Source of the DNA: a virus
Virus genome (UHGV): UHGV-1728205
Direction: 5' to 3' (one strand)
DNA length: 13,255 bases
Shown here piece by piece: positions 1 through 13,255 of this stretch. Numbering within the stretch: position 1 is the stretch's first letter; each line of letters starts with the position of its first letter. The notes under the pieces are model-generated. The model saw only the letters and a list, made by a program, of their open reading frames with translations. It was not told where the DNA came from and did no database searches. The translations under genes and the position numbers were made by a program.

Positions 1-147
1 ACGAGTGGAACCACCTGTATCACGAGTGGAAGCACCTGTATCACGAGTGGAACCACCTGTATCACGAGTGGAAGCACCTGTAGCACGAGTTGAAGCACCT
101 GTAGCACGAGTTGAAGCACCTGTAGCACGATTTGAACCGCCTGTAGT
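1..147 (+). repeat. 21-bp tandem repeat, about 7 copies, in-frame coding (heptapeptide repeats)
   Basis: Units acgagtggaaccacctgtatc / acgagtggaagcacctgtatc / acgagttgaagcacctgtagc repeat head to tail from base 1, with a degenerate last unit near 127-147. The repeat probably continues upstream of the window. Confidence 0.85.
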
Positions 148-271
148 CGATGTCAGCGATTTGAAGGAGAAAATCAGACTGTATGCGTTATCACACAATC
201 CTCATTGCGATGTAGATAATATGCCGGATGATGTTGTTTTGATGATGTATAAAGATATGATGGGTCAATAA
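1..271 (+). CDS. 3' end of a gene entering from upstream of the window; heptapeptide-repeat region plus ~45-aa C-terminal segment, function unknown
   Basis: Frame with codons at 2-4, 5-7... is open from base 2 to TAA at 269-271. The M at position 5 in the ORF track is a GTG inside the open frame, not a real start. Encodes PVSRVEA/PVARVEA repeats then ...DLKEKIRLYALSHNPHCDVDNMPDDVVLMMYKDMMGQ. A hairpin terminator follows directly. Confidence 0.5.
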   Translation, partial: RVEPPVSRVEAPVSRVEPPVSRVEAPVARVEAPVARVEAPVARFEPPVVDVSDLKEKIRLYALSHNPHCDVDNMPDDVVLMMYKDMMGQ

Positions 272-275
272 AGAT

Positions 276-301
276 AGCGGGGTAGTTAGCCCCGCTTTTT
301 G
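276..301. terminator. Rho-independent hairpin terminator between convergent transcription units (likely bidirectional)
   Basis: Stem GCGGGG (277-282) / CCCCGC (290-295) with a 7-nt loop, followed by TTTTT (296-300) on the plus strand. On the minus strand the same hairpin is followed by a weaker T-rich run. It lies between the stop of the plus-strand gene (271) and the stop of the minus-strand gene (302). Confidence 0.7.
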
Positions 302-640
302 TTAACAGAAGGGTTCGTTTTTCCAGTCACCATCCTGTTTAAGTATATAAGGTTGATAATCTGTTTCACCCGTTTCAACATGTTCCAGATTACCCTGACG
401 ATTCGTTTTAAACTTGCCCAATGGTAAATACTGACGCGGGAAAACGTTATGCCATTTACCGTATTCGGTATCTTTTCCATCTTTGTATTTAACGGGACCA
501 CACGCTGAACATAATCGTTTACCTTTCCTTTCAGGTGCATATGACCAGTCGTATAATTTTTCAAAGAAGCCGTTAAACCCCTGAGAAGACAGAGCGGTGT
601 TTTCAACACACCCACAGTTTTCACATTGAAACAAACTCAT
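302..640 (-). CDS. small cysteine-rich (zinc-ribbon-like) protein, 112 aa, function unknown
   Basis: ATG at 640 preceded by GAGGTG Shine-Dalgarno with 5-nt spacing. Two CxxC pairs (CENCGC ... CSACGP). Preferred over the overlapping 286..624 frame because of the SD and Cys motifs. Confidence 0.55.
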   Translation of the reverse strand: MSLFQCENCGCVENTALSSQGFNGFFEKLYDWSYAPERKGKRLCSACGPVKYKDGKDTEYGKWHNVFPRQYLPLGKFKTNRQGNLEHVETGETDYQPYILKQDGDWKNEPFC

Positions 641-690: not shown

Positions 691-900
691 CTATTTATGA
701 TTAGCCAGGCTTTCGAACTGGCGGTTAGTTGTATCACAATCGTCTGCTATTTTGTCCAGTATCCCGTACGAATGAGAAACCAGCGAATTAAATTCATCAT
801 CACTGGTTACTGGTACAGGGACAAATCTAATCCCGGCATGTGCAAGACTGTTTGCCATTTCAAGACACTTACGTATTTCTACAGGCGATGCTTTATTCAT
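691..900 (-). CDS. hypothetical protein (~69 aa)
   Basis: ATG at 900 lies 2 nt after the TGA of the upstream HD-hydrolase gene; alternative GTG at 906 overlaps that stop. Same strand and packing as neighbours. Ends TAG at 691-693. Confidence 0.45.
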   Translation of the reverse strand: MNKASPVEIRKCLEMANSLAHAGIRFVPVPVTSDDEFNSLVSHSYGILDKIADDCDTTNRQFESLANHK

Positions 901-902
901 AA

Positions 903-1472
903 TCACAGATTCCCCATCGCTTTAACCAGCGCGTCGTAGTGTTTGTCAAACGCGGTTAACTGGACGTTCGTTAGTTTGTATTTGGCTTTAAACAATTCAC
1001 GCTCAACAAGCGCGTATAACTCCTGGTTGCTTGCGTCTGACAGATGAGAAAGCATGAGTTGTTTTTCAGCCAGGTACGTTACAGCAAACTTCGGATCGTG
1101 TCGGACAATTGAAGATGTGTTATCCAGCAGATCACACAGTTTTATAGTTTTCACCACAGGTTCAGCCCGTGATAAATGGTCGATGTCCCGTGCTTTACGC
1201 TTAACACGGTTGCCGTGGTGTGGACGACTCACATCAGTAAGCTGATCAACATAACGTGCGACCGTCTCACCGAACTGCGAGCACACATCACCCACGGTCA
1301 CGCGCGTATCTTCAACGACGTCATGTAGCCAGGCAGCGGTAATCATATCCGGCGTACCACCATAGCGTTTAACCAGTTCAGCAACGTTCCGGCAGTGGTT
1401 CACATATGGGTCGTTGGTGTACTTACGAAGTTGATCACCGTGTGCTGCTGTTGCGAATTGTTCAGGTGTCAT
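903..1472 (-). CDS. RelA/SpoT-family HD-domain phosphohydrolase (small alarmone hydrolase-like, putative (p)ppGpp/(p)ppApp hydrolase)
   Basis: 189 aa. HGDQLRKYTNDPYVNHCRNVA ... AAWLHDVVEDT ... FGETVARYV ... KLCDLLDN closely follows the SpoT/Mesh1 hydrolase pattern (H..R..G.PY..H...VA, AALLHDV.EDT, FG..VA..V, KLADRLHN). ATG at 1472 overlaps the upstream stop (ATGA). Confidence 0.8.
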   Translation of the reverse strand: MTPEQFATAAHGDQLRKYTNDPYVNHCRNVAELVKRYGGTPDMITAAWLHDVVEDTRVTVGDVCSQFGETVARYVDQLTDVSRPHHGNRVKRKARDIDHLSRAEPVVKTIKLCDLLDNTSSIVRHDPKFAVTYLAEKQLMLSHLSDASNQELYALVERELFKAKYKLTNVQLTAFDKHYDALVKAMGNL

Positions 1473-1714
1473 GATGGTTGTACCTCTGTTTGTTTTTCTG
1501 CCTTCAACACCATGCGAGAACCATCATCCAGTTCCCACGCGATCTCACCACCTTCAGCAATAACCAGTTACCATACTAACTGTGCTGCTTCATTGGTTAC
1601 ATCACGACCGGGATCATTGCCAACGCGCATACGCCCACCTTCAACATCGCGCATTTTTGCCAGCATGATAGTTTTTGATAGTGGTGAAAAACCAAGTTGA
1701 AGTTTAGTACTCAT
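1469..1714 (-). pseudogene. 81-codon reading frame interrupted by an in-frame TAA (ochre) at 1568-1570; possible pseudogene, sequencing error, or two very short ORFs
   Basis: Minus-strand ATG at 1714-1712 lies 2 nt after the stop of the upstream gene. The frame reads MSTKLQLGFSPLSKTIMLAKMRDVEGGRMRVGNDPGRDVTNEAAQLVW-stop-LVIAEGGEIAWELDDGSRMVLKAEKQTEVQPS and ends at a TGA that overlaps the ATG of the HD-hydrolase gene (ATGA). Both ends look like genuine coupled gene junctions. Confidence 0.3.
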
Positions 1715-1716
1715 AT

Positions 1717-1977
1717 TCAATACCCTTTTAATTTTCTACACTCAGGACAGCGCCATCTACCTTTTTGGTAAACTCGCGTATGACCACGTTTACATTTATT
1801 GGTTACCAGTGATATACCGAGACGTGACGCTTTAATGTGCACCGCTTCAACGTCCCGGCGAAGGTAATACGCTATTTCATCCGCACTGATCTTTCCTGCA
1901 TTAATTTTTAATAACGCCAGATCTCGTGCGGACCACTTCAAACCGTTACGAGGGAACCTGTTAGTTACATTCGACAT
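1717..1977 (-). CDS. putative DNA-binding protein (helix-turn-helix-like segment plus C-terminal Cys/His zinc-ribbon-like motif), 86 aa
   Basis: First ATG at 1977; the ORF-track start at 1980 is TTG. ...ISADEIAYYLRRDVEAVHIKASRLGIS... resembles a sigma70 region-4 style HTH. C-terminus CKRGH...CPEC. Stop TGA at 1717-1719. Confidence 0.5.
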   Translation of the reverse strand: MSNVTNRFPRNGLKWSARDLALLKINAGKISADEIAYYLRRDVEAVHIKASRLGISLVTNKCKRGHTRVYQKGRWRCPECRKLKGY

Positions 1978-2343: not shown

Positions 2344-2536
2344 AAATTCTGTCTCCTTTAGGGTGCCGGTGGTTTTTCCAGCGGTTTTGCGCCGCGCTGG
2401 GCTTTTTGCAAAAACCACAATCCATCATCCCGTAATATTTCATCAACCCCATTCGTCGGTTGCTGAGTCTCACCCACTGCCAGACGCCGGGAGCGTTTCT
2501 ACGAACTAACAGAATCTTTGCCTTGCGGTTTTTCAT
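2333..2536 (-). CDS. hypothetical basic protein, 67 aa
   Basis: ATG at 2536 overlaps the TGA of the ParB-like gene (ATGA). Lys/Arg-rich. Confidence 0.45.
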   Translation of the reverse strand: MKNRKAKILLVRRNAPGVWQWVRLSNRRMGLMKYYGMMDCGFCKKPSAAQNRWKNHRHPKGDRIYVR

Positions 2537-3300
2537 AACTGGTGCTCCTTCAGTGCTTTTAACGCTTCGAACTGTTCAGCGGTAAGTTCAACCAGTACTT
2601 TACCACCTTCCGAACGGGTTACAGACCATTCACCACGGATTGCTTCCACTGCAGACCGTACCAGTTTAGCAGGTGGACGACGCGTTACTACTGGTTCTTT
2701 ATCACCTGCTTTAAACTGGCGAATGGCTGCTGATGCGCTGATTTCACCGTTCTGAATACGACGTTTAAGTTCCAGCGGCATATCAAGAATATTCAGTTGT
2801 TCGTAAACGTGTTGGACGGTTTTACCGACCTGTGTAGCGATCTGCTCAACACTCATACCATATGAACGGAAACGACCGTAAATAACAGCACGTTCAACGG
2901 GTGACCACGGTTTACCCTCATTACCTTTTAACAGTGTCAGGGTCTGTTGTAGTTCGTCACCGGACGATTCAACAACGTCTACTGTCAGAATCGGCGTCCC
3001 GGCCTCAATAGCTGCCAATACGCCACGTAAACGATGCTCACCATCCTGAACATAAGGAACACCATCAACAACCTGTACCACGATCGGTGGAACGAAATCG
3101 CCGTTGGTATAAGCCTGACGAAAGTTTTCAATGTGTGCCAGTGCTGCTTCAGTTTCCCAGTAGTTGTCGGTAAATACACCGCGTGGGTTATGTCCTGGAC
3201 GAATCTTGATAATACGCGGATCAATGCGATATGCGTTACCACGTTTTACGTTGGTTTTATCGGTATCAGATAGCTTGCGAAGGGAGTTAATGTTAGCCAT
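2533..3300 (-). CDS. ParB/Srx-like N-terminal domain protein with HTH (ParB-like nuclease/CTPase fold)
   Basis: 255 aa. PPIVVQVVDGVPYVQDGEHRLRGVLAA matches the ParB box (GxxRxxA-type GERRxRA motif). A helix-turn-helix-like segment (MSVEQIATQVGKTVQHVYEQLNIL) follows. ATG at 3300, with a promoter-like motif just upstream. Confidence 0.7.
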   Translation of the reverse strand: MANINSLRKLSDTDKTNVKRGNAYRIDPRIIKIRPGHNPRGVFTDNYWETEAALAHIENFRQAYTNGDFVPPIVVQVVDGVPYVQDGEHRLRGVLAAIEAGTPILTVDVVESSGDELQQTLTLLKGNEGKPWSPVERAVIYGRFRSYGMSVEQIATQVGKTVQHVYEQLNILDMPLELKRRIQNGEISASAAIRQFKAGDKEPVVTRRPPAKLVRSAVEAIRGEWSVTRSEGGKVLVELTAEQFEALKALKEHQL

Positions 3301-3334: not shown

Positions 3335-3379
3335 ATTATCGGGGGAGGTTGGTAATCTGTCAAGAATTATTTTAAGGGT
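3335..3379 (-). promoter_or_regulatory. sigma70-type promoter with AT-rich UP-like element (copy A of a conserved motif), driving the ParB-like gene and downstream genes
   Basis: Minus strand reads TAAAATAATTCTTGACA GATTAC...: -35 TTGACA (3363-3358), 17-bp spacer, -10 GATAAT (3340-3335). Overlaps the stop codon of the SLOG gene. Confidence 0.5.
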
Positions 3380-3767
3380 ACGGCACCCACACAGTTAAAC
3401 CAGCTTTCAACATGCGACGGTGCATATCAGCCGTACCACGCCCACCTGGGAACACAACACCGTATGTAGGTCGTGGTTCACCCTCTAACATTGCCTGATT
3501 GCGTTGATGACCTGCAACAGCGTTATAAGCCCCGTGCTTACCCTGTTTTACAACCGCACCCGGCACTGTCAGATCGTTCCACGCTGCCGGACAACTACGA
3601 ACTGGAATACCGTGTAATTGCGCCCACTGCTTACACAAGTTATCAACACCTGATGCACCGCCTTCAATTAGTTCGGTAACCGGGTGTTGTTTGTGAAGTA
3701 ACCCTAATGCTGAAAATATCGCTGTTCTGTCGTTGAAGTCACGACCACCTGTAACGACTATTATCAT
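3372..3767 (-). CDS. SLOG-superfamily protein (LOG/DprA/YpsA-like Rossmann domain, DUF2493-like), putative nucleotide-binding or nucleotide-processing
   Basis: 131 aa. N-terminal IIVVTGGRDF, then LIEGGASGVD, then C-terminal VVFPGGRGTADM resembling the LOG-family PGGxGTxxE signature. ATG at 3767 overlaps the TGA of the methyltransferase-like gene (ATGA). Confidence 0.5.
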   Translation of the reverse strand: MIIVVTGGRDFNDRTAIFSALGLLHKQHPVTELIEGGASGVDNLCKQWAQLHGIPVRSCPAAWNDLTVPGAVVKQGKHGAYNAVAGHQRNQAMLEGEPRPTYGVVFPGGRGTADMHRRMLKAGLTVWVPYP

Positions 3768-4444
3768 TGTTTATTAGCCTCAAATACAGCACGAGCAAAA
3801 CCACGCGGGGTTAATGAACGTAACTGTTTAGTTGTTTCAGACTTACCACCCAGATATTTCCAACCCCAGAAGAAACCAATATTAATCGGTCCGGGACGTT
3901 TTTCAGGCATTCTGAAACCGTTACCGAACCACAGACATGTTTTCTTCGTGTATCCGTCAAACATCGGCATTTTAGGGTGAAAAGGTTTATCATCTGTTGT
4001 CATATAACCGCCATATTCCCACGGATGAAAATAAGCGTCAGGTGTCCCCATCATTTCAGACCGTGATAAAGCACCGACAGGGTTTTCGACCATCCAGGGT
4101 ACGTTATAACGTTCTCCGAGTTCACGGATCAGTTTTGCGTTTGCCAGTGCATACTGTAGTTCAGCGTCATCCCGGTCATGTTGCGAACCGCTTTGAGCAA
4201 ACAGGGTGCAATCCGGAAAACCAAAAATAATTGACGGTAAAGGTGTTCCCAGTATTTCCTGCTTAATTGCAAATTGTGGGTCAATCCACTGATTAACGTA
4301 ATGAAGATTTGGGTGTTGCATTTTGATTTTATATTCCCCGTGATTACCGGAATCAGCATTAAAGCAATAAACCTGATAGCCAGCCTTAGCCCACGGTAAA
4401 CCCATAATCCCGGAACCATCGAATAACGACCAGACGACTTTCAT
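3764..4444 (-). CDS. compact C5-cytosine methyltransferase-like protein (226 aa; catalytic motifs present, no obvious target-recognition domain)
   Basis: SLFDGSG (motif I, FxGxG AdoMet-binding like), FGFPDCTLFAQSG (aligns with motif IV GGPPCQxFSxAG including the catalytic Cys), MVENPVG (motif VI ENV). ATG at 4444 overlaps the upstream stop (ATGA). Confidence 0.5.
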   Translation of the reverse strand: MKVVWSLFDGSGIMGLPWAKAGYQVYCFNADSGNHGEYKIKMQHPNLHYVNQWIDPQFAIKQEILGTPLPSIIFGFPDCTLFAQSGSQHDRDDAELQYALANAKLIRELGERYNVPWMVENPVGALSRSEMMGTPDAYFHPWEYGGYMTTDDKPFHPKMPMFDGYTKKTCLWFGNGFRMPEKRPGPINIGFFWGWKYLGGKSETTKQLRSLTPRGFARAVFEANKQ

Positions 4445-5607: not shown

Positions 5608-7962
5608 CTAACCGTTACTCGCAGGTGGGAAAGGCACTACATTAGCTGTTGATTGAAAATGGAGAAGACGAATACCCCTGAAACCGTTTAATCGTACGTT
5701 ATTTATATTAACAACGTCTTTTTTCACTTTACCACGAAGGGTGGATTTAAACGCCCGACTAAATGCAGTTTTAGTCATTGCTGGACCACCTTCCTGTGTT
5801 TTCCAAAGACGATAACGACCATAGAGTTCTTCAGTATGTACCTCACCATCAGATACCAATTCGCAACAATCTCTGATAAAACTTCTAAGTGGTGATTGTT
5901 GATCCATAATTTCCTGACGTTCTTCCAGACTTGCTTTTGGTTCAGTAAACCGTCCGTTTGCACGTAACCGTTGTAAACCTTCAATCGCCCAGTTACAGAT
6001 CCCCGGTAGTTCTTTCATCAGTCGTGCTTCCAGAGTGGTATCTTCACGACCCAGGAACGAAATGTTGAATGGCAGGATCAGCAAACGGTTAGCCATTGCA
6101 CCTGAATCATCAGCAAATGCCGGTATGTTGTTAGCAGCCAGTGTCATACGTCCCGGTAAACGACCGTTCCATGCACCTTTATACTTACGATTAACCGGAA
6201 TCGCATCACAACCTGTAATAGATTTGAAACGGTCCAGAATTCGGTTGCGATCAGGCCCGGACACACTGTGAGCATCACCAATAAACAGCACAGATTTATC
6301 CAGCACAGTTTCAAGTACCGCATCACTGGCTAAACCCTCTAGTGTGATCCCTGCATACGCTTCATCACCTACCAGTGCCTGAATGATGCGACCAATCGTA
6401 CCTTTACCGGAACGTGGTGCACCAATCAACAGCATCGCTTTCTGATAGTCATACGAGTTGACAAGCATGTAACCCAGCCATTCCTGCAACAATGCAATAC
6501 GTTCCTGATCACCTTCCAGAGTTGTATTAAGGAACTGTTCAAATGCTGGCGCACGGGCAAACGGATCGTAGCTATACGGTAAAATACTGGTCGTAAAGAA
6601 GTCTGGGTTATGTGCATCACATTTACCCGTATGTACATCCAGTATCCCGTTCTGACAAACAATATAGTGTGATACATCAACGCCGGGCCATGTTCCAAGC
6701 TCACGATCAGCGCGTGTGAATAAATACGACAATACCTTGTACGTACCATTGATCACGTCAGCTTTTGGTTCGCTGGCAAGCATTGCAATAGAAATTTGAT
6801 GTTTCAGTTCATCTTCACTGACACGTTCCCATACACGGCCGTTAAACCGGTACGGCTGTTGCTGGACGAAAATCAATGTGTTGTTCGGATAATAGTTATT
6901 AACGAACGTGGATGCGTTAACCGTATGGTTTGAACCATATGCACCTTCACCGGGTCTCACACTCATGTACGCAGGTGTTCCACCATTAGGAACGACGGTA
7001 GGCGCTGGTGTGACTGCTTTCATCAGTTCTGGTGTCATTGTCGGTTGACTACGATACACAGTATCACAACGTTCCACAGCGCCCAGAATCGTGTTTTCAC
7101 GGTAATCCTGACGATCTGTCCATTTACCACGAACCAGCCCGGAACGGTTAAACAATCGTTCAATACGTTCGCAATCTTTCCCGGTCCAGAACGCAAGGTG
7201 TGAACACAGGGCAGCATCTGCTGCTGATGCGTTGTAGTCTTTCCCCTGGTCACTAGGATATGACACAGACAGGCGTTCAACGTTTGCATTCCACAGATCC
7301 GCAAATGACGCTTTATTGCCAAATACTGAAGCAGCACTGGACGAATTTAACGCCATTTTAATCAGTTCATCGTCGTCTGTCGGTCCTGACCAGTCATCAC
7401 AAGGTGCTGTTGTCCAGCGTGCGGAACGGTCTGAACGGATACGACCATACCGGGCAATAGAATCATGAATACCCTGGGTATAATCAATATCAACATCACC
7501 ATTACCCGTGAGCGTCATCGCGACGAAACGATCACGCCAGTACATTTCCAGCCCGGTTTTCTGGTCGTTCAGACTGTTAAAACCTTCCGGTATGCTGGTA
7601 TAAGCACAGATGATATGCAAACCTGTTCCTGACTGACTGACTTCGGTGTACGCGTTTGGAAAACGGTTTACGAATTCATGCGCCAGTGGTGACCACGTAG
7701 CTGTTGCCTGATCTACCAGACAGTTATCAACATCGATAAAGAAATAAGGGTCATTTTCTGTGAATACAAAACCAACACCAGACATACCGTACATTTGCGC
7801 CATGCCTAACGCGGTGTGATAGTCAGACCAGTCGTTAGGGTTAGTGGTACTGGCTTTATAACCGTGTACCGGACTGTATGGTACTTTCGTTGGTTTTGGA
7901 CGATCGGCGACTGTCTCAAGCCGCCACATGACCCACTGTTTACGGTTCAGTAACCCTTTCAT
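5608..7962 (-). CDS. bifunctional primase-polymerase (archaeo-eukaryotic primase fold, prim-pol type) fused to an SF3 (D5/P4-type) helicase
   Basis: 784 aa. N-terminal QWVMWRLE...KVPYS, DxD motif FFIDVDNC and SGTGLHIICAY (AEP motifs I and II). C-terminal P-loop LLIGAPRSGKGT (Walker A) typical of phage/plasmid primase-helicase C-terminal domains. ATG at 7962, stop TAG at 5608-5610. Confidence 0.85.
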   Translation of the reverse strand: MKGLLNRKQWVMWRLETVADRPKPTKVPYSPVHGYKASTTNPNDWSDYHTALGMAQMYGMSGVGFVFTENDPYFFIDVDNCLVDQATATWSPLAHEFVNRFPNAYTEVSQSGTGLHIICAYTSIPEGFNSLNDQKTGLEMYWRDRFVAMTLTGNGDVDIDYTQGIHDSIARYGRIRSDRSARWTTAPCDDWSGPTDDDELIKMALNSSSAASVFGNKASFADLWNANVERLSVSYPSDQGKDYNASAADAALCSHLAFWTGKDCERIERLFNRSGLVRGKWTDRQDYRENTILGAVERCDTVYRSQPTMTPELMKAVTPAPTVVPNGGTPAYMSVRPGEGAYGSNHTVNASTFVNNYYPNNTLIFVQQQPYRFNGRVWERVSEDELKHQISIAMLASEPKADVINGTYKVLSYLFTRADRELGTWPGVDVSHYIVCQNGILDVHTGKCDAHNPDFFTTSILPYSYDPFARAPAFEQFLNTTLEGDQERIALLQEWLGYMLVNSYDYQKAMLLIGAPRSGKGTIGRIIQALVGDEAYAGITLEGLASDAVLETVLDKSVLFIGDAHSVSGPDRNRILDRFKSITGCDAIPVNRKYKGAWNGRLPGRMTLAANNIPAFADDSGAMANRLLILPFNISFLGREDTTLEARLMKELPGICNWAIEGLQRLRANGRFTEPKASLEERQEIMDQQSPLRSFIRDCCELVSDGEVHTEELYGRYRLWKTQEGGPAMTKTAFSRAFKSTLRGKVKKDVVNINNVRLNGFRGIRLLHFQSTANVVPFPPASNG

Positions 7963-8770: not shown

Positions 8771-10432
8771 TCAGATTAATGAACTTGCAACCCTTGCGGC
8801 GAGTTTATTAGCTTCACGAGTACGTAACCCCTGAGCGCTAAGTACATCAACACCAAACACCCTGTAAAACATCTTGTAAGCGTCATCAACGGGTATACCT
8901 TTATCACGCTGAATACCGGCCCATGTGGTAATCATGCTACGTAATTTACGTTGTGCATCGTTCATTGCCTGAATGTTTTTCATTGCACTGTAAGCTGCAA
9001 CAGGGGGTGCACCAGCGTTTAACATTTGTTCTTTTACCGCAACAGGGTCACGGTCGATTATCACAACTGCCCTGCGTAATTCTTCCAGTTCTTCAGGTGT
9101 CAGTTCACGTAAATTACCTTCTACACGATCCGGGCCTGAGCGTTCGGCTTTTTCAGGAACATGACCACAATACGGGCAGCACGGCAGACCAGACGGATAA
9201 GGCTTCAGACACGGTGGAATACCGTTATCAGGATCACCCTTGTTTGTACACGTTGTGTTACTGTTCCCACTGCTGTTTGATGAACGACGGTCACGGTCAT
9301 CTAAAGACCAGTTGTAGTGCTGATCGGGAAGTGGAAAACCACGGGCCAGAAATCGACGAACATTACCGACTTTATCAATAATCAGTGCTTTTTTACCGGG
9401 TTTGAAACGCAACGGTCGGCCCATTTGTTGTACAAACAAAGAGTAAGATTCTGTTGGACGGTCCATTACAGCACATTCCATCGCCGGGCAATCGTACCCT
9501 TCACCGAATAAATCGTTGTTACATAGCACGAGTGTTTTACGTCGTTCAAAACGTTCCAGAATATCCGCTCGTTCCTGATTGCTGTTTCGTGAGCTGATCG
9601 CCTCTGCAGGAATGCCAGCATCGCGAAATTCTTTTGCCAGTGCTTCAGCAGAATCTACGTCACACGTAAAAACAACAGTGAGTAAGCCATCTGCATATGT
9701 TTTCCACGTACTGACGGTATCACCAACGATGTTTGAATCTTCCATCGCTTTTTTTAACGCAGAGGGTTTGTAATCACCCGTAGTATGGGAAATCATTTCT
9801 ACAGTTAATTCCAGGTCTGTTTCAGCCATAATCAGGCGATAATCAGCCAGGTGTTGTTGACTGATTAACTCACGCATTGACGGACCAATGATCATCTGAT
9901 CTGCATAACCTGACGCATGACGACCCAAGCCTTTACCGTCAGCACGGATCGGTGTAGCTGTAACACCCAGACCTTTAGCGTTAGGGAATTTTTCCCGGCA
10001 ATCTCCCCACTGTGTGCCACGTACCAGGTGATGCGCTTCGTCGCTGAATACAAGAGACACGTCGTTGTACCATCGTTCGTACTGTTTTGTTCTTAACGTT
10101 TGTGAACTGGTAATAACGATGTCAGCGCCGGGGGAATAGGTACTGTAACCAAGCGTTTTCATCTGCTGATTAGTTGCAAACTTAACAGTATCTTTTTGCG
10201 CTATAAATCTGTGTGGTAATCCCTGGCGAGCAACAGCCATTGCGATTTGACTAACCAGTTCTTTACGGTGTGCCTGGATGACTTTTACACCGTCTCTTGT
10301 TTTTACCAGTTCAGACATACAGAACGTTTTTCCTGCCCCCGTGGGAAGCACAAGAATCACGTCGTCAGCACCGCTTGACCATGCCTGACATACGTTATTG
10401 ATAGCTTCAGTCTGATAATAACGAGCTTTCAT
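8771..10432 (-). CDS. SF2 DEAD/DEAH-box helicase with C-terminal cysteine cluster
   Basis: 553 aa. Walker A VLPTGAGKTF, DEAH box VFSDEAHHL, motif III GVTATP, motif VI QQMGRPLR. C-terminal region contains CLKPYPSGLPCCPYCGH. ATG at 10432, stop TGA at 8771-8773. Confidence 0.85.
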   Translation of the reverse strand: MKARYYQTEAINNVCQAWSSGADDVILVLPTGAGKTFCMSELVKTRDGVKVIQAHRKELVSQIAMAVARQGLPHRFIAQKDTVKFATNQQMKTLGYSTYSPGADIVITSSQTLRTKQYERWYNDVSLVFSDEAHHLVRGTQWGDCREKFPNAKGLGVTATPIRADGKGLGRHASGYADQMIIGPSMRELISQQHLADYRLIMAETDLELTVEMISHTTGDYKPSALKKAMEDSNIVGDTVSTWKTYADGLLTVVFTCDVDSAEALAKEFRDAGIPAEAISSRNSNQERADILERFERRKTLVLCNNDLFGEGYDCPAMECAVMDRPTESYSLFVQQMGRPLRFKPGKKALIIDKVGNVRRFLARGFPLPDQHYNWSLDDRDRRSSNSSGNSNTTCTNKGDPDNGIPPCLKPYPSGLPCCPYCGHVPEKAERSGPDRVEGNLRELTPEELEELRRAVVIIDRDPVAVKEQMLNAGAPPVAAYSAMKNIQAMNDAQRKLRSMITTWAGIQRDKGIPVDDAYKMFYRVFGVDVLSAQGLRTREANKLAARVASSLI

Positions 10433-10602: not shown

Positions 10603-11364
10603 ATGTTCGAAGTTAAATTACTTGTAACTGCTCCGGGTCTGGAAACTGCGATCAACAATCTGGCAAACGCTATTGCGACTGGTGCTGCACCACTCATGAC
10701 TGCTCAGGGTGATGGTATCACTAAAGAAACCGTGACTGTCGTTGCTGAATCATTGCCTGTTGTATCTGCACCAACTGAAGATGTTGACGATAATGAAACC
10801 AGCACTGAAGAGTTCGACAAATGGGGTTTGCGTCATGATCCGCGTATCCACACTGACAGTAAATCCCTGAACAAAGGTGATGGTCTGTGGCGTCAAAAGA
10901 AAAAACTGGATGAAGCGTTTGTTGACGGTGTTAAACGTGAACTTATCGCTGAAGCAGTTGAAGCAGGGCGTTATACCGGACCTGCAGAACTTGCACCGGG
11001 TTATGTAGCACCTGTTGATCCTGCTCCAGCGGTTCCTGCCGCTCCGGTAGCTCCAGTTGTACCAGCAGCACCGGCTGCACCAGTCGAGCAACCTGTAACC
11101 ACGGATCCGGCTAAAGTTTATAACACCCAGGTTCTTCAGTCAGCACTAATGCAGATGTTTGGACAAATTACGGGCGACCGTGCCGCGCCATTAAGTCAGC
11201 GAATCATGGGACTGTATGAAACTCAGAATGTAATGCAGATTGATGACCCGGTGAAACTGAAATCTATCATCGAACTGATTGAACGTATTAACGCTGCCCC
11301 TGCTGATGCTGAAAATATTGTCGGTCAGGCTGAGTCTGTTAAACAAATGGGTGGGGCATTCTGA
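10603..11364 (+). CDS. hypothetical protein with central Pro/Ala-rich low-complexity linker, 253 aa
   Basis: ATG at 10603 with AAGAGGA Shine-Dalgarno. First gene after the promoter region. Linker APGYVAPVDPAPAVPAAPVAPVVPAAPAAPV encoded around 10975-11095. Stop TGA overlaps the next ATG (TGATG). Confidence 0.6.
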   Translation: MFEVKLLVTAPGLETAINNLANAIATGAAPLMTAQGDGITKETVTVVAESLPVVSAPTEDVDDNETSTEEFDKWGLRHDPRIHTDSKSLNKGDGLWRQKKKLDEAFVDGVKRELIAEAVEAGRYTGPAELAPGYVAPVDPAPAVPAAPVAPVVPAAPAAPVEQPVTTDPAKVYNTQVLQSALMQMFGQITGDRAAPLSQRIMGLYETQNVMQIDDPVKLKSIIELIERINAAPADAENIVGQAESVKQMGGAF

Positions 11365-12524: not shown

Positions 12525-13255
12525 ATGGCACAGAAAGAATCTTTTGTAACTCCGGTTGGTCGTCTGGTTGGCGGTTCTTTTTTCGATATCAACACTCATG
12601 ACCACGAAAATAAACCGTTAGCACCTGAAAAACACAACTGGTGGGTTGGTCTGGCGTTTCCTAAAACAGCGGCGAACTGGTGGGAAGAACAAGGTGAACT
12701 GGGTGCGGTATTCCAGGCGATTATGCGAGCGGCTAACTCACACTATGTGAACGGCGAACCACAACAACCTACTTTCGCATGGAAAATTATTAACGGTGAT
12801 GATCCGAAACATGCGAGTAAAACGGGTTATGCTGGTCACTGGGTAATTGGTTTCTCACGCAACGTGGCTATTGACGCGTGTCCGGTTTATAACGCAGCGT
12901 ACCAGCCAGTTATTGATAAAAATCTGGCGAAAAAAGGGTATTACTACCGTATCAGCGGATCATCTGTTGCAAACGGTCGTACAGGTAATCAGGCTGGCGT
13001 ATATATCAACATGGAAATGGCGCAATTGCTTTATGCGGGTGAAGAAATTATTTCTGGTCCGGCTCCTGCCTCTGTGTTCGGTGCTGCTCCTGCAATGCCT
13101 GAAGGTGCACGTCCGATCGGCGTAACACCAGCGGTAGCACCTGTAGCAGCGCCTATACCAGCGGCAGCACCTGTAGCAGCGCCTACACCAGCGGCAGCAC
13201 CTGTAGCAGCGCCTACACCAGCGGCAGCACCTGTAGCAGCGCCTACACCAGCGGC
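12525..13255 (+). CDS. DUF2815-like putative phage ssDNA-binding protein, 3' end truncated by the window; C-terminal Pro/Ala-rich tandem-repeat tail
   Basis: ATG at 12525 with AAGAAGG Shine-Dalgarno. My own translation is open to the window end: MAQKESFVTPVGRLVGGSFFDINTHDHENKPLAPEKHNWWVGLAFPK...GVYINMEMAQLLYAGEEIISGPAPASVFGAAPAMPEGARPIGVTPAVAPVAAPIPAAAPVAAPTPAAAPVAAPTPA... Sits directly downstream of DUF2800, as in the DUF2800-DUF2815 replication module. Family assignment is from memory of that arrangement and N-terminal pattern, not from a search. Confidence 0.5.
   Translation, partial: MAQKESFVTPVGRLVGGSFFDINTHDHENKPLAPEKHNWWVGLAFPKTAANWWEEQGELGAVFQAIMRAANSHYVNGEPQQPTFAWKIINGDDPKHASKTGYAGHWVIGFSRNVAIDACPVYNAAYQPVIDKNLAKKGYYYRISGSSVANGRTGNQAGVYINMEMAQLLYAGEEIISGPAPASVFGAAPAMPEGARPIGVTPAVAPVAAPIPAAAPVAAPTPAAAPVAAPTPAAAPVAAPTPA
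13131..13255 (+). repeat. 30-bp tandem repeat, at least 4 copies, in-frame coding (AAPVAAPTPA decapeptide repeats), running off the window
   Basis: Unit gcggcagcacctgtagcagcgcctacacca at 13161-13190, 13191-13220 and 13221-13250 (three identical copies), one variant copy at 13131-13160, and a partial copy to 13255. Confidence 0.9.

Follow-up and report, generated by a model that had tools for sequence, protein, structure and literature searches.

A predicted PaSpo-like small alarmone hydrolase in the replication region of a 9NA/Sasha-like phage

Why does a phage carry a hydrolase of the RelA/SpoT family, and on what would such an enzyme act in the infected cell? The question is raised by a gene in a stretch of 13,255 nucleotides of the virus genome UHGV-1728205 (the window), which an earlier note, made from the sequence alone, had read as a phage-borne small alarmone hydrolase (SAH) that either reprograms host stringent control or counters alarmone-based antiphage toxins. 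In Enterobacteria, toxic small alarmone synthetases (toxSAS) such as CapRel are an established mechanism of anti-phage immunity. Standalone phage SAHs and the hypothesis that they serve counter-defence have already been described in the literature, with experiments on the nearest homologue of the protein considered here. What is new is modest: the 9NA-like phage group carries a conserved PaSpo-like SAH.

The gene and its enzyme class

The gene spans positions 903..1472 of the window on the minus strand, stop codon included, and encodes 189 residues with a single RelA/SpoT-type HD_4 domain. This is exactly the open reading frame that the earlier note had delimited; the strand, which it had left out, is added here. 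The start codon is the ATG at 1472-1470 (minus strand), and what we read as a Shine-Dalgarno-like GAGGT (1482..1486, minus strand) stands 9 nt 5' of it. Both motifs quoted in the note are found in the translation. AAWLHDVVEDT comprises residues 46-56 (codons at 1305..1337, minus strand) and holds the HD metal dyad H50-D51 and the catalytic pair E54-D55, while KLCDLLDN comprises residues 111-118 (1119..1142, minus strand) and holds the metal-binding D114 and N118. The H..R motif said to lie upstream is present as well; in the alignment it is best read as H11-x4-R16 (AHGDQLRK), that is, the HD1 motif H11-G-D-Q14-L-R16 (1425..1442, minus strand), together with H26 (1395..1397, minus strand), the first metal-binding histidine, which corresponds to H35 of MESH1.

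Conservation was assessed in an alignment of the SAH with 38 homologues of 42-89% identity, the PaSpo of phage SSU5 included (39 sequences). Its invariant columns include H11, R16, H26, H50, D51, E54, D55, T56, D114 and N118, as well as K111. Loss of the metal-binding H and D residues on careful alignment had been named as grounds for abandoning the reading; all four (H26, H50, D51 and D114) are invariant in the 39 sequences. A HMMER alignment pairs R16 with R24 of MESH1, H26 with H35, H50-D51 with H61-D62, E54-D55 with E65-D66, D114 with D122 and N118 with N126. We take these residues to coordinate Mn2+, to form the catalytic Glu-Asp dyad and to bind the substrate, roles that we understand Hogg et al. 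2004 and Sun et al. 2010 to have assigned in RelSeq and MESH1.

Profile searches, which the earlier note had proposed as a check, place the protein in the RelA/SpoT HD family. Pfam HD_4 (PF13328) matches residues 5-124 (E=3.9e-15), scoring 56.3 bits where the gathering cut-off is 27.2, the PHROG 990 profile 'metal-dependent phosphohydrolase' matches with E=2.4e-38, and the match to NCBIfam spoT_relA is confined to profile positions 4-122 of 687, which is the hydrolase part. The architecture is that of the SAH class: within the 189 residues only HD_4/HD is matched, and synthetase, TGS and ACT domains are absent. The claim that a synthetase domain is lacking holds for the surroundings too, the neighbouring ORFs being without a Pfam RelA_SpoT match. 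A sequence search of the PDB returned as best matches Listeria Lmo0812, human and fly MESH1, the N-terminal domains of Rel/SpoT and several bacterial SAHs.

The closest CHARACTERISED relative of the SAH is PaSpo SSU5_099 of Salmonella phage SSU5, with 51% identity over residues 6-147 (E=3e-45). Among phages of other groups, the highest-scoring matches to the SAH reach about 50% identity and include SSU5_099. In the reciprocal search, with SSU5_099 as the query, sashavirus proteins rank directly behind those of SSU5 and its close relative pJN2-26. The 51% identity to PaSpo-SSU5 stands against 20-28% to the other enzymes compared (MESH1, PaSAH, RelH, the Leptospira SAH and Aph1). By pairwise identity and reciprocal best hits we provisionally call the protein PaSpo-like; homologues in beta-proteobacteria are what a PaSpo affiliation would lead one to expect.

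An AlphaFold2 model, built from the 38-sequence alignment without the SSU5 row, is all-helical, with a mean pLDDT of 97.1 and a pTM of 0.92. Foldseek against the PDB places human MESH1 first (TM 0.75-0.82, rmsd 1.9-2.1 Å over about 170 columns), followed by Drosophila MESH1, the P. aeruginosa SAH, Lmo0812, C. glutamicum RelH, the Leptospira SAH, SpoT, Rel and Aph1; the model gives TM 0.6-0.7 with the structures of SAHs, Rel and SpoT. A search of a viral structure library with the same model matched many phage HD proteins.

The prominence of MESH1 in these searches bears on a different function. Like the metazoan enzyme, the protein might mainly dephosphorylate NADPH, or a PAPS-like 2'/3'-phosphorylated cofactor, and so shift redox or cofactor pools. 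Its best structural matches are indeed MESH1-NADPH and MESH1-PAPS complexes, and the bacterial XccSAH also has NADPH phosphatase activity. That activity, however, is about 40-fold below that of Mesh1, which its authors blame on a missing nicotinamide-riboside motif, and identity to MESH1 is 27-28% as against 51% to the toxSAS-neutralising PaSpo. We know of no rationale for a phage to carry an NADPH phosphatase, and consider this function improbable.

The RelA/SpoT-type HD hydrolase of the earlier note thus stands, on profile matches, PDB matches, catalytic residues and structural superposition. From the sequence and the model, it is well supported as an enzyme class that 903..1472 encodes a single-domain small alarmone hydrolase of the RelA/SpoT family.

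The phage, the gene neighbourhood and the distribution of the gene

The window is about 96% identical, in a mosaic pattern (47-69% coverage), to phages PJ16, PDP46, Bas82, AVIO78A, Sasha, Sergei and Solent, and about 78-80% identical to phage 9NA and its Klebsiella relatives. With the window about 96% identical to Nonanavirus/Sashavirus genomes, the gene is rightly called phage-borne, and by nucleotide similarity the window derives from a 9NA/Sasha-like lytic siphovirus of the Escherichia/Salmonella phage group. It represents the replication region of the phage. The minus strand carries genes for a helicase (8771..10432), a nuclease (within the minus-strand replication block), a P4-type primase (5608..7962), a C5-methyltransferase (3764..4444), a SLOG/YAcAr protein (3372..3767) and a ParB-like protein (2533..3300), and an exonuclease/annealase block lies divergently on the plus strand. 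Downstream of ParB, the leftward helicase-primase-methylase-ParB block ends distally in a series of small genes, of which the SAH is one; this accessory part is variable, and ParB forms its conserved left anchor.

Within this run the genes overlap. The stop codon of the upstream DUF7446/phrog_1578 gene (1469..1720, minus strand; Pfam and PHROG matches) overlaps the SAH start in the sequence ATGA, and the start of the downstream DUF1382/phrog_292 gene (691..906, minus strand; 71 aa) overlaps the SAH stop by 4 nt. The DUF7446 gene is cut off by a premature TAA at 1568-1570, a change from CAA to TAA in the alignment with Bas82. The last gene of the block, phrog_11861 (302..640, minus strand), is the positional homologue of Sasha gp80. 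Beyond it, between the convergent blocks, lies a GC-rich hairpin (276..296), which may act as a bidirectional terminator and so close the SAH transcription unit; in the Sasha record a terminator is annotated at the equivalent place. Upstream of ParB lies a sigma-70-like promoter candidate, TTGACA-17-GATAAT (3335..3363, minus strand), which is a consensus match at 11 of 12 positions; promoter-like sites in the region are not enriched (3 found, 5.4 expected). Given this near-consensus site just upstream of ParB, it is plausible that a host-RNAP promoter drives the SAH in the early or middle phase of infection. PADLOC, run on the SAH and on nine small proteins encoded beside it, gave zero matches and hence no link between the block and known defence systems.

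In a tblastn search, only ten phage records held a protein with more than 90% identity to the SAH. They represent the E. coli phages Bas82, 536P12, PJ16, BDX09P1, PDP46 and AVIO78A, together with partial records of the Salmonella phages FSL SP-062 and SP069; the gene is carried by all six E. coli isolates found. The Bas82 protein is 97.9% identical to that of the window, and Bas82 is a public, cultivable E. coli K-12 phage of the BASEL collection, in which the BASEL paper saw no recognisable supplementary locus. GenBank labels for these SAHs are inconsistent ('metal-dependent phosphohydrolase', 'polyphosphate hydrolase'), and the PDP46 record wrongly calls the protein a 'RelA/SpoT family (p)ppGpp synthetase'. 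The present finding corrects the functional annotation of the SAH genes in these records.

Between ParB and the gp80 homologue, Sasha carries just two small genes, and the SAH is absent at this site. Sergei and Solent show match patterns like those of Sasha, and the DNA of 9NA and of the Klebsiella relatives resembles the window only past position 2527, which suggests that several other relatives also lack the SAH here. Because Sasha is without it and the match patterns of other relatives are alike, we regard the SAH as an accessory gene in a variable block. Bas82, PJ16 and metagenomic contigs share the order of ParB, small genes and SAH. Two orthologues from metagenomes, 89% and 84% identical, sit on sashavirus-like contigs, at the same site downstream of ParB and with different small flanking genes. 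The position of the SAH downstream of ParB is kept in these diverged contigs although the small genes around it differ.

Could the SAH be an inactive or decaying passenger that has no role in infection? The nonsense mutation in the adjoining DUF7446 gene means that the block tolerates some decay, and related phages such as Sasha dispense with the SAH. The SAH reading frame, in contrast, is intact, its catalytic residues are all invariant, and pairwise Nei-Gojobori dN/dS across SAH orthologues is 0.04-0.14 at dS up to 1.7, and therefore the gene is under strong purifying selection. A mere passenger is scarcely credible.

When the region was compared by megablast with 5,426 complete E. coli genomes, the only matches fell in the DUF7446 segment and lay in prophages. 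The SAH gave none and is therefore not, at the DNA level, a recent acquisition from a prophage. The wider SAH family comprises 1,859 matches and, among the matches listed, its members are about 150-230 aa long and HD_4-only. They include Burkholderia proteins, one of them in a prophage-like patch adjoining a phage lysozyme, and one orphan chromosomal copy; these homologues fit the proteobacterial range given for paSpo.

The SAH might also confer immunity to an RSH toxin encoded by the phage itself, or act as the antitoxin of one. SAHs do so elsewhere, ATfaRel for FaRel and Aph1 for the MuF-fused Apk2. An RSH synthetase domain is nonetheless absent from the flanking ORFs and from ten large unannotated Bas82 proteins, the Bas82 annotation holds no synthetase product, and the MuF protein of Bas82 ends with the MuF domain and has no C-terminal toxin. 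Both the Burkholderia and the other chromosomal homologue examined are likewise without a synthetase neighbour. With no synthetase in the flanks, in the ten Bas82 proteins and the MuF protein, or in the Bas82 annotation, we reject this reading, to which we assign very little probability.

Substrates and role in infection

R16 gives a first indication of the substrates. When coordinate offsets are applied to the alignment, it stands opposite R43 of TtRel, R44 of B. subtilis Rel and D24 of Aph1. [quoted passage not shown] Because R16 aligns with TtRel R43 and BsRel R44, the SAH resembles at this position the promiscuous, (p)ppGpp-capable enzymes and not Aph1; of the Aph1 signature (D24, R119 and others), the comparison covers the D24 position only. 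A (p)ppApp-only enzyme of the Aph1 type was rejected because the match is weak (E=0.005) and the SAH has an Arg at the D24 position; the SAH also has the full helical complement. Promiscuous bacterial SAHs hydrolyse both (p)ppGpp and (p)ppApp, and by analogy the same dual hydrolysis is most likely for the phage SAH.

PaSpo-SSU5 neutralises all five toxSAS tested, namely CapRel, PhRel, PhRel2, FaRel2 and FaRel, and the PbcSpo SAH of phage PVP-SE1 likewise neutralised all five (Jimmy et al. 2020, PNAS, PMC7229694). The same authors explicitly proposed that such hydrolases could serve incoming phages to get past alarmone-mediated defence (PMC7229694). In E. coli, PaSpo-SSU5 is in routine use for detoxifying CapRel-SJ46, PhRel2 and FaRel2 (10.1101/2021.04.30.441581; 10.1101/2024.07.05.602228). 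Since PaSpo-SSU5 was shown to neutralise toxSAS in 2020, the counter-defence idea of the earlier note is sound but already published.

The note did not consider one likely substrate. Four of the five toxSAS families are not alarmone makers; they pyrophosphorylate tRNA 3'-CCA ends, a modification that SAHs reverse (10.1101/2021.04.30.441581; 10.1101/2024.07.05.602228). PaSpo-SSU5 is reported to remove the tRNA modification (bioRxiv 10.1101/2024.07.05.602228), and MESH1, too, relieves the toxicity of toxSAS and returns pyrophosphorylated tRNA to its intact form (bioRxiv 10.1101/2021.04.30.441581). Because four of the five families act on tRNA 3'-CCA, modified tRNA is a likely substrate for the SAH as well. 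By analogy with PaSpo-SSU5, MESH1 and ATfaRel, the SAH probably removes pyrophosphate from tRNA.

We propose that the SAH would be expressed during infection as an accessory gene of the ParB-led replication-region block, and that its product, in a Mn2+-dependent reaction, most likely cleaves the pyrophosphate off the 3' position of (p)ppApp and (p)ppGpp. Probably it would also strip pyrophosphate from tRNA 3'-CCA ends that have been modified by toxSAS (CapRel, PhRel, FaRel2). The phage would most likely benefit in that abortive infection by RSH toxins fails and translation continues. What the SAH acts on, when it is expressed and that it serves counter-defence are our inferences, the first and the last drawn from a homologue of 51% identity; at this distance, the substrate range of the SAH need not equal that of PaSpo. 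With these analogies, we favour, with moderate confidence, a functional Mn2+-dependent SAH of the PaSpo type that strips 3'-pyrophosphate and most likely defeats abortive infection by RSH toxins.

On the other hand, the SAH may act on the alarmones of the host itself. It would degrade the (p)ppGpp that RelA/SpoT makes when infection drains amino acids and nucleotides, so that the phage could go on relying on transcription of rRNA and tRNA, on translation and on DNA replication. The SAH shares its catalytic machinery with (p)ppGpp hydrolases, R16 takes the guanine-stacking position of TtRel R43, and related promiscuous SAHs such as XccSAH hydrolyse (p)ppGpp efficiently. Accumulation of alarmones on phage infection is cited by Jimmy et al. 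(PMC7229694), and the gene sits among replication genes. E. coli, however, already has SpoT, and relief of the stringent response, if generally needed, would be expected of a core gene, yet Sasha is without the SAH. The accessory distribution fits a defence-specific role slightly better than a general need. Host reprogramming, the first alternative offered by the earlier note and the main rival of counter-defence, appears rather unlikely as the main function. The sequence is compatible with both roles, and they do not exclude each other, as one promiscuous enzyme could do both.

Is protection against toxSAS the function for which these phages keep the gene? The distribution of the SAH, present in some relatives and absent in Sasha, is typical of counter-defence cargo. 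A more specific proposal, which we put forward tentatively, is that in these strictly lytic siphoviruses the SAH is a broad-spectrum counter-defence acting mainly by repair of tRNA 3' ends, from whose CCA it would take off the pyrophosphate attached by toxSAS of the CapRel type, and that selection by toxSAS-bearing hosts explains why all six E. coli isolates found have the gene and Sasha does not. If this is true, the SAH would be the first natural example, in the searchable literature, of a phage SAH defeating toxSAS. The published support for the phage SAH counter-measure proposed in 2020 consists of co-expression rescues and not of infections: in the literature we found no phage SAH shown to protect a phage, or to defeat a toxSAS, in a real infection. 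Alarmones go unmentioned in the accessory-gene screen of Silas et al. For Bas82, a phage nearly identical to that of the window, the BASEL study reports no special robustness to the defence systems tested, a panel not reported to include toxSAS. Bas82 would lend itself well to an infection-level assay of a phage SAH against toxSAS.

Comparison with known small alarmone hydrolases

Human and Drosophila MESH1 (PDB 3NR1, 5VXA, 9CHY, 3NQW) are the best structural match to the SAH and share its H, HD, ED, D and N active-site residues. Identity is nevertheless only 27-28%, and MESH1 is a metazoan NADPH phosphatase, whose nicotinamide-riboside motif the SAH may lack. The P. aeruginosa SAH (6YVC), Xanthomonas XccSAH and C. 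glutamicum RelH (7QOD) have the same fold, with TM 0.64-0.69 and 22-25% identity. These promiscuous bacterial SAHs differ from the phage protein in being non-viral; they are chromosomal housekeeping enzymes or act against T6SS toxins. Aph1 (PDB 7SMG; PMC10083569) has the HD-domain alarmone hydrolase fold as well and is encoded by a prophage. Unlike the SAH, it adjoins its own toxin and is without two helices that the SAH has, and the match between the two is weak (E=0.005; TMq about 0.5).

The PbcSpo SAHs, represented by ATfaRel of Cellulomonas marina and by the enzyme of PVP-SE1, are single-domain RSH hydrolases that, like PaSpo, neutralise all tested toxSAS (PMC7229694). With the PVP-SE1 enzyme, a second, independent SAH subfamily is found to be phage-borne (PMC7229694). 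PbcSpo is nonetheless a different subfamily, and PVP-SE1 is not among the 60 best phage matches of PaSpo. ATfaRel, moreover, belongs to a three-gene toxin-antitoxin operon, whereas the SAH of the window has no toxin partner.

The nearest system is PaSpo-SSU5. It is longer (213 aa, with an insertion after residue 154, against 189 aa), and the C-terminal 40 residues of the two proteins have no detectable likeness. The phages differ too, SSU5 having a genome of about 103 kb while the SAH belongs to a lytic, 9NA-like siphovirus of about 55-58 kb. Yet both enzymes are standalone, phage-encoded and HD_4-only, neither adjoins a synthetase gene, and their catalytic motifs, LHDVVEDT and KL.DLLDNTSSIV included, are identical.

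A variable block of small genes around the hydrolase

The stretch of small accessory genes on the minus strand between the ParB-like gene and the terminal hairpin, a candidate terminator (window 2533-302), differs in content across all of the relatives examined, Sasha, PJ16 and Bas82. Sasha carries two genes there, whereas the window carries about six in addition to the small alarmone hydrolase gene (SAH); the ParB-to-hairpin block is a hotspot for accessory content of this kind. On the other side of ParB, between it and the C5-methyltransferase gene, lies a minus-strand gene for a SLOG-family protein (window 3372-3767; Pfam YAcAr PF10686; PHROG 'GTP-binding domain'). Domains of the SLOG family are predicted to bind nucleotide ligands; the gene itself is kept in Sasha, a phage that lacks SAH. 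In Sasha, an HNH endonuclease gene is located between the SLOG gene and ParB, whereas the window has none at that position.

The DUF7446 gene adjoining SAH

Adjoining SAH on its upstream side is a minus-strand gene of the DUF7446 / phrog_1578 family (window 1469-1720). Comparison with Bas82 reveals a premature TAA in this gene at window 1568-1570, where Bas82 has CAA, so that the product is 50 aa long instead of 81 aa; consequently, any translational coupling into SAH would be lost. The early stop could be a true nonsense mutation or a sequencing error. At the DNA level, a segment of the gene (window 1491-1703) is 91-93% identical to genes of lambdoid and Stx prophages and is matched in 152 of 5,426 complete E. 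coli genomes, while the neighboring SAH has no DNA match among the same 5,426. Given that prophages match the DUF7446 segment and none matches SAH, the sequences suggest that this small gene has recently been exchanged between lytic 9NA-like and temperate phages.

Coding tandem repeats

Coding tandem repeats are found at either end of the window, at 1-146 and 13125-13255, and the Sasha record likewise has tandem repeats annotated at both corresponding places. The first, seven copies of a 21-bp unit, encodes PVSRVEA-type peptide repeats in a plus-strand ORF (5..271). The second, 4.4 copies of a 30-bp unit, is Ala/Pro-rich and, judging by its position, is probably part of a Gp2.5-like ssDNA-binding gene extending past the window end. 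A predicted 253-aa protein encoded on the plus strand immediately upstream of the exonuclease (window 10603-11364) contains a low-complexity linker rich in Pro/Ala/Val, PAPAVPAAPVAPVVPAAPAAP, coded by an imperfect 27-bp repeat at window 11023-11074.

The hydrolase in related phages

The PDP46 orthologue of SAH (PQ783785.1, 54434-55000) is labelled 'RelA/SpoT family (p)ppGpp synthetase', a product name that is wrong, as the protein has the hydrolase domain only. In Sashavirus BDX09P1 (OZ035775.1, 55836-56404) the tblastn match to SAH falls into two pieces, which suggests a frameshift or indel in this copy. The sashavirus hydrolases (window 903-1472, minus strand) extend by an additional C-terminal helix (residues ~169-187) beyond the related bacterial proteins, whose length is mostly about 165-175 aa. 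The C-terminus of PaSpo from Salmonella phage SSU5 is likewise longer and hard to align, and carries a loosely similar F/Y-[DE]-K-H motif.
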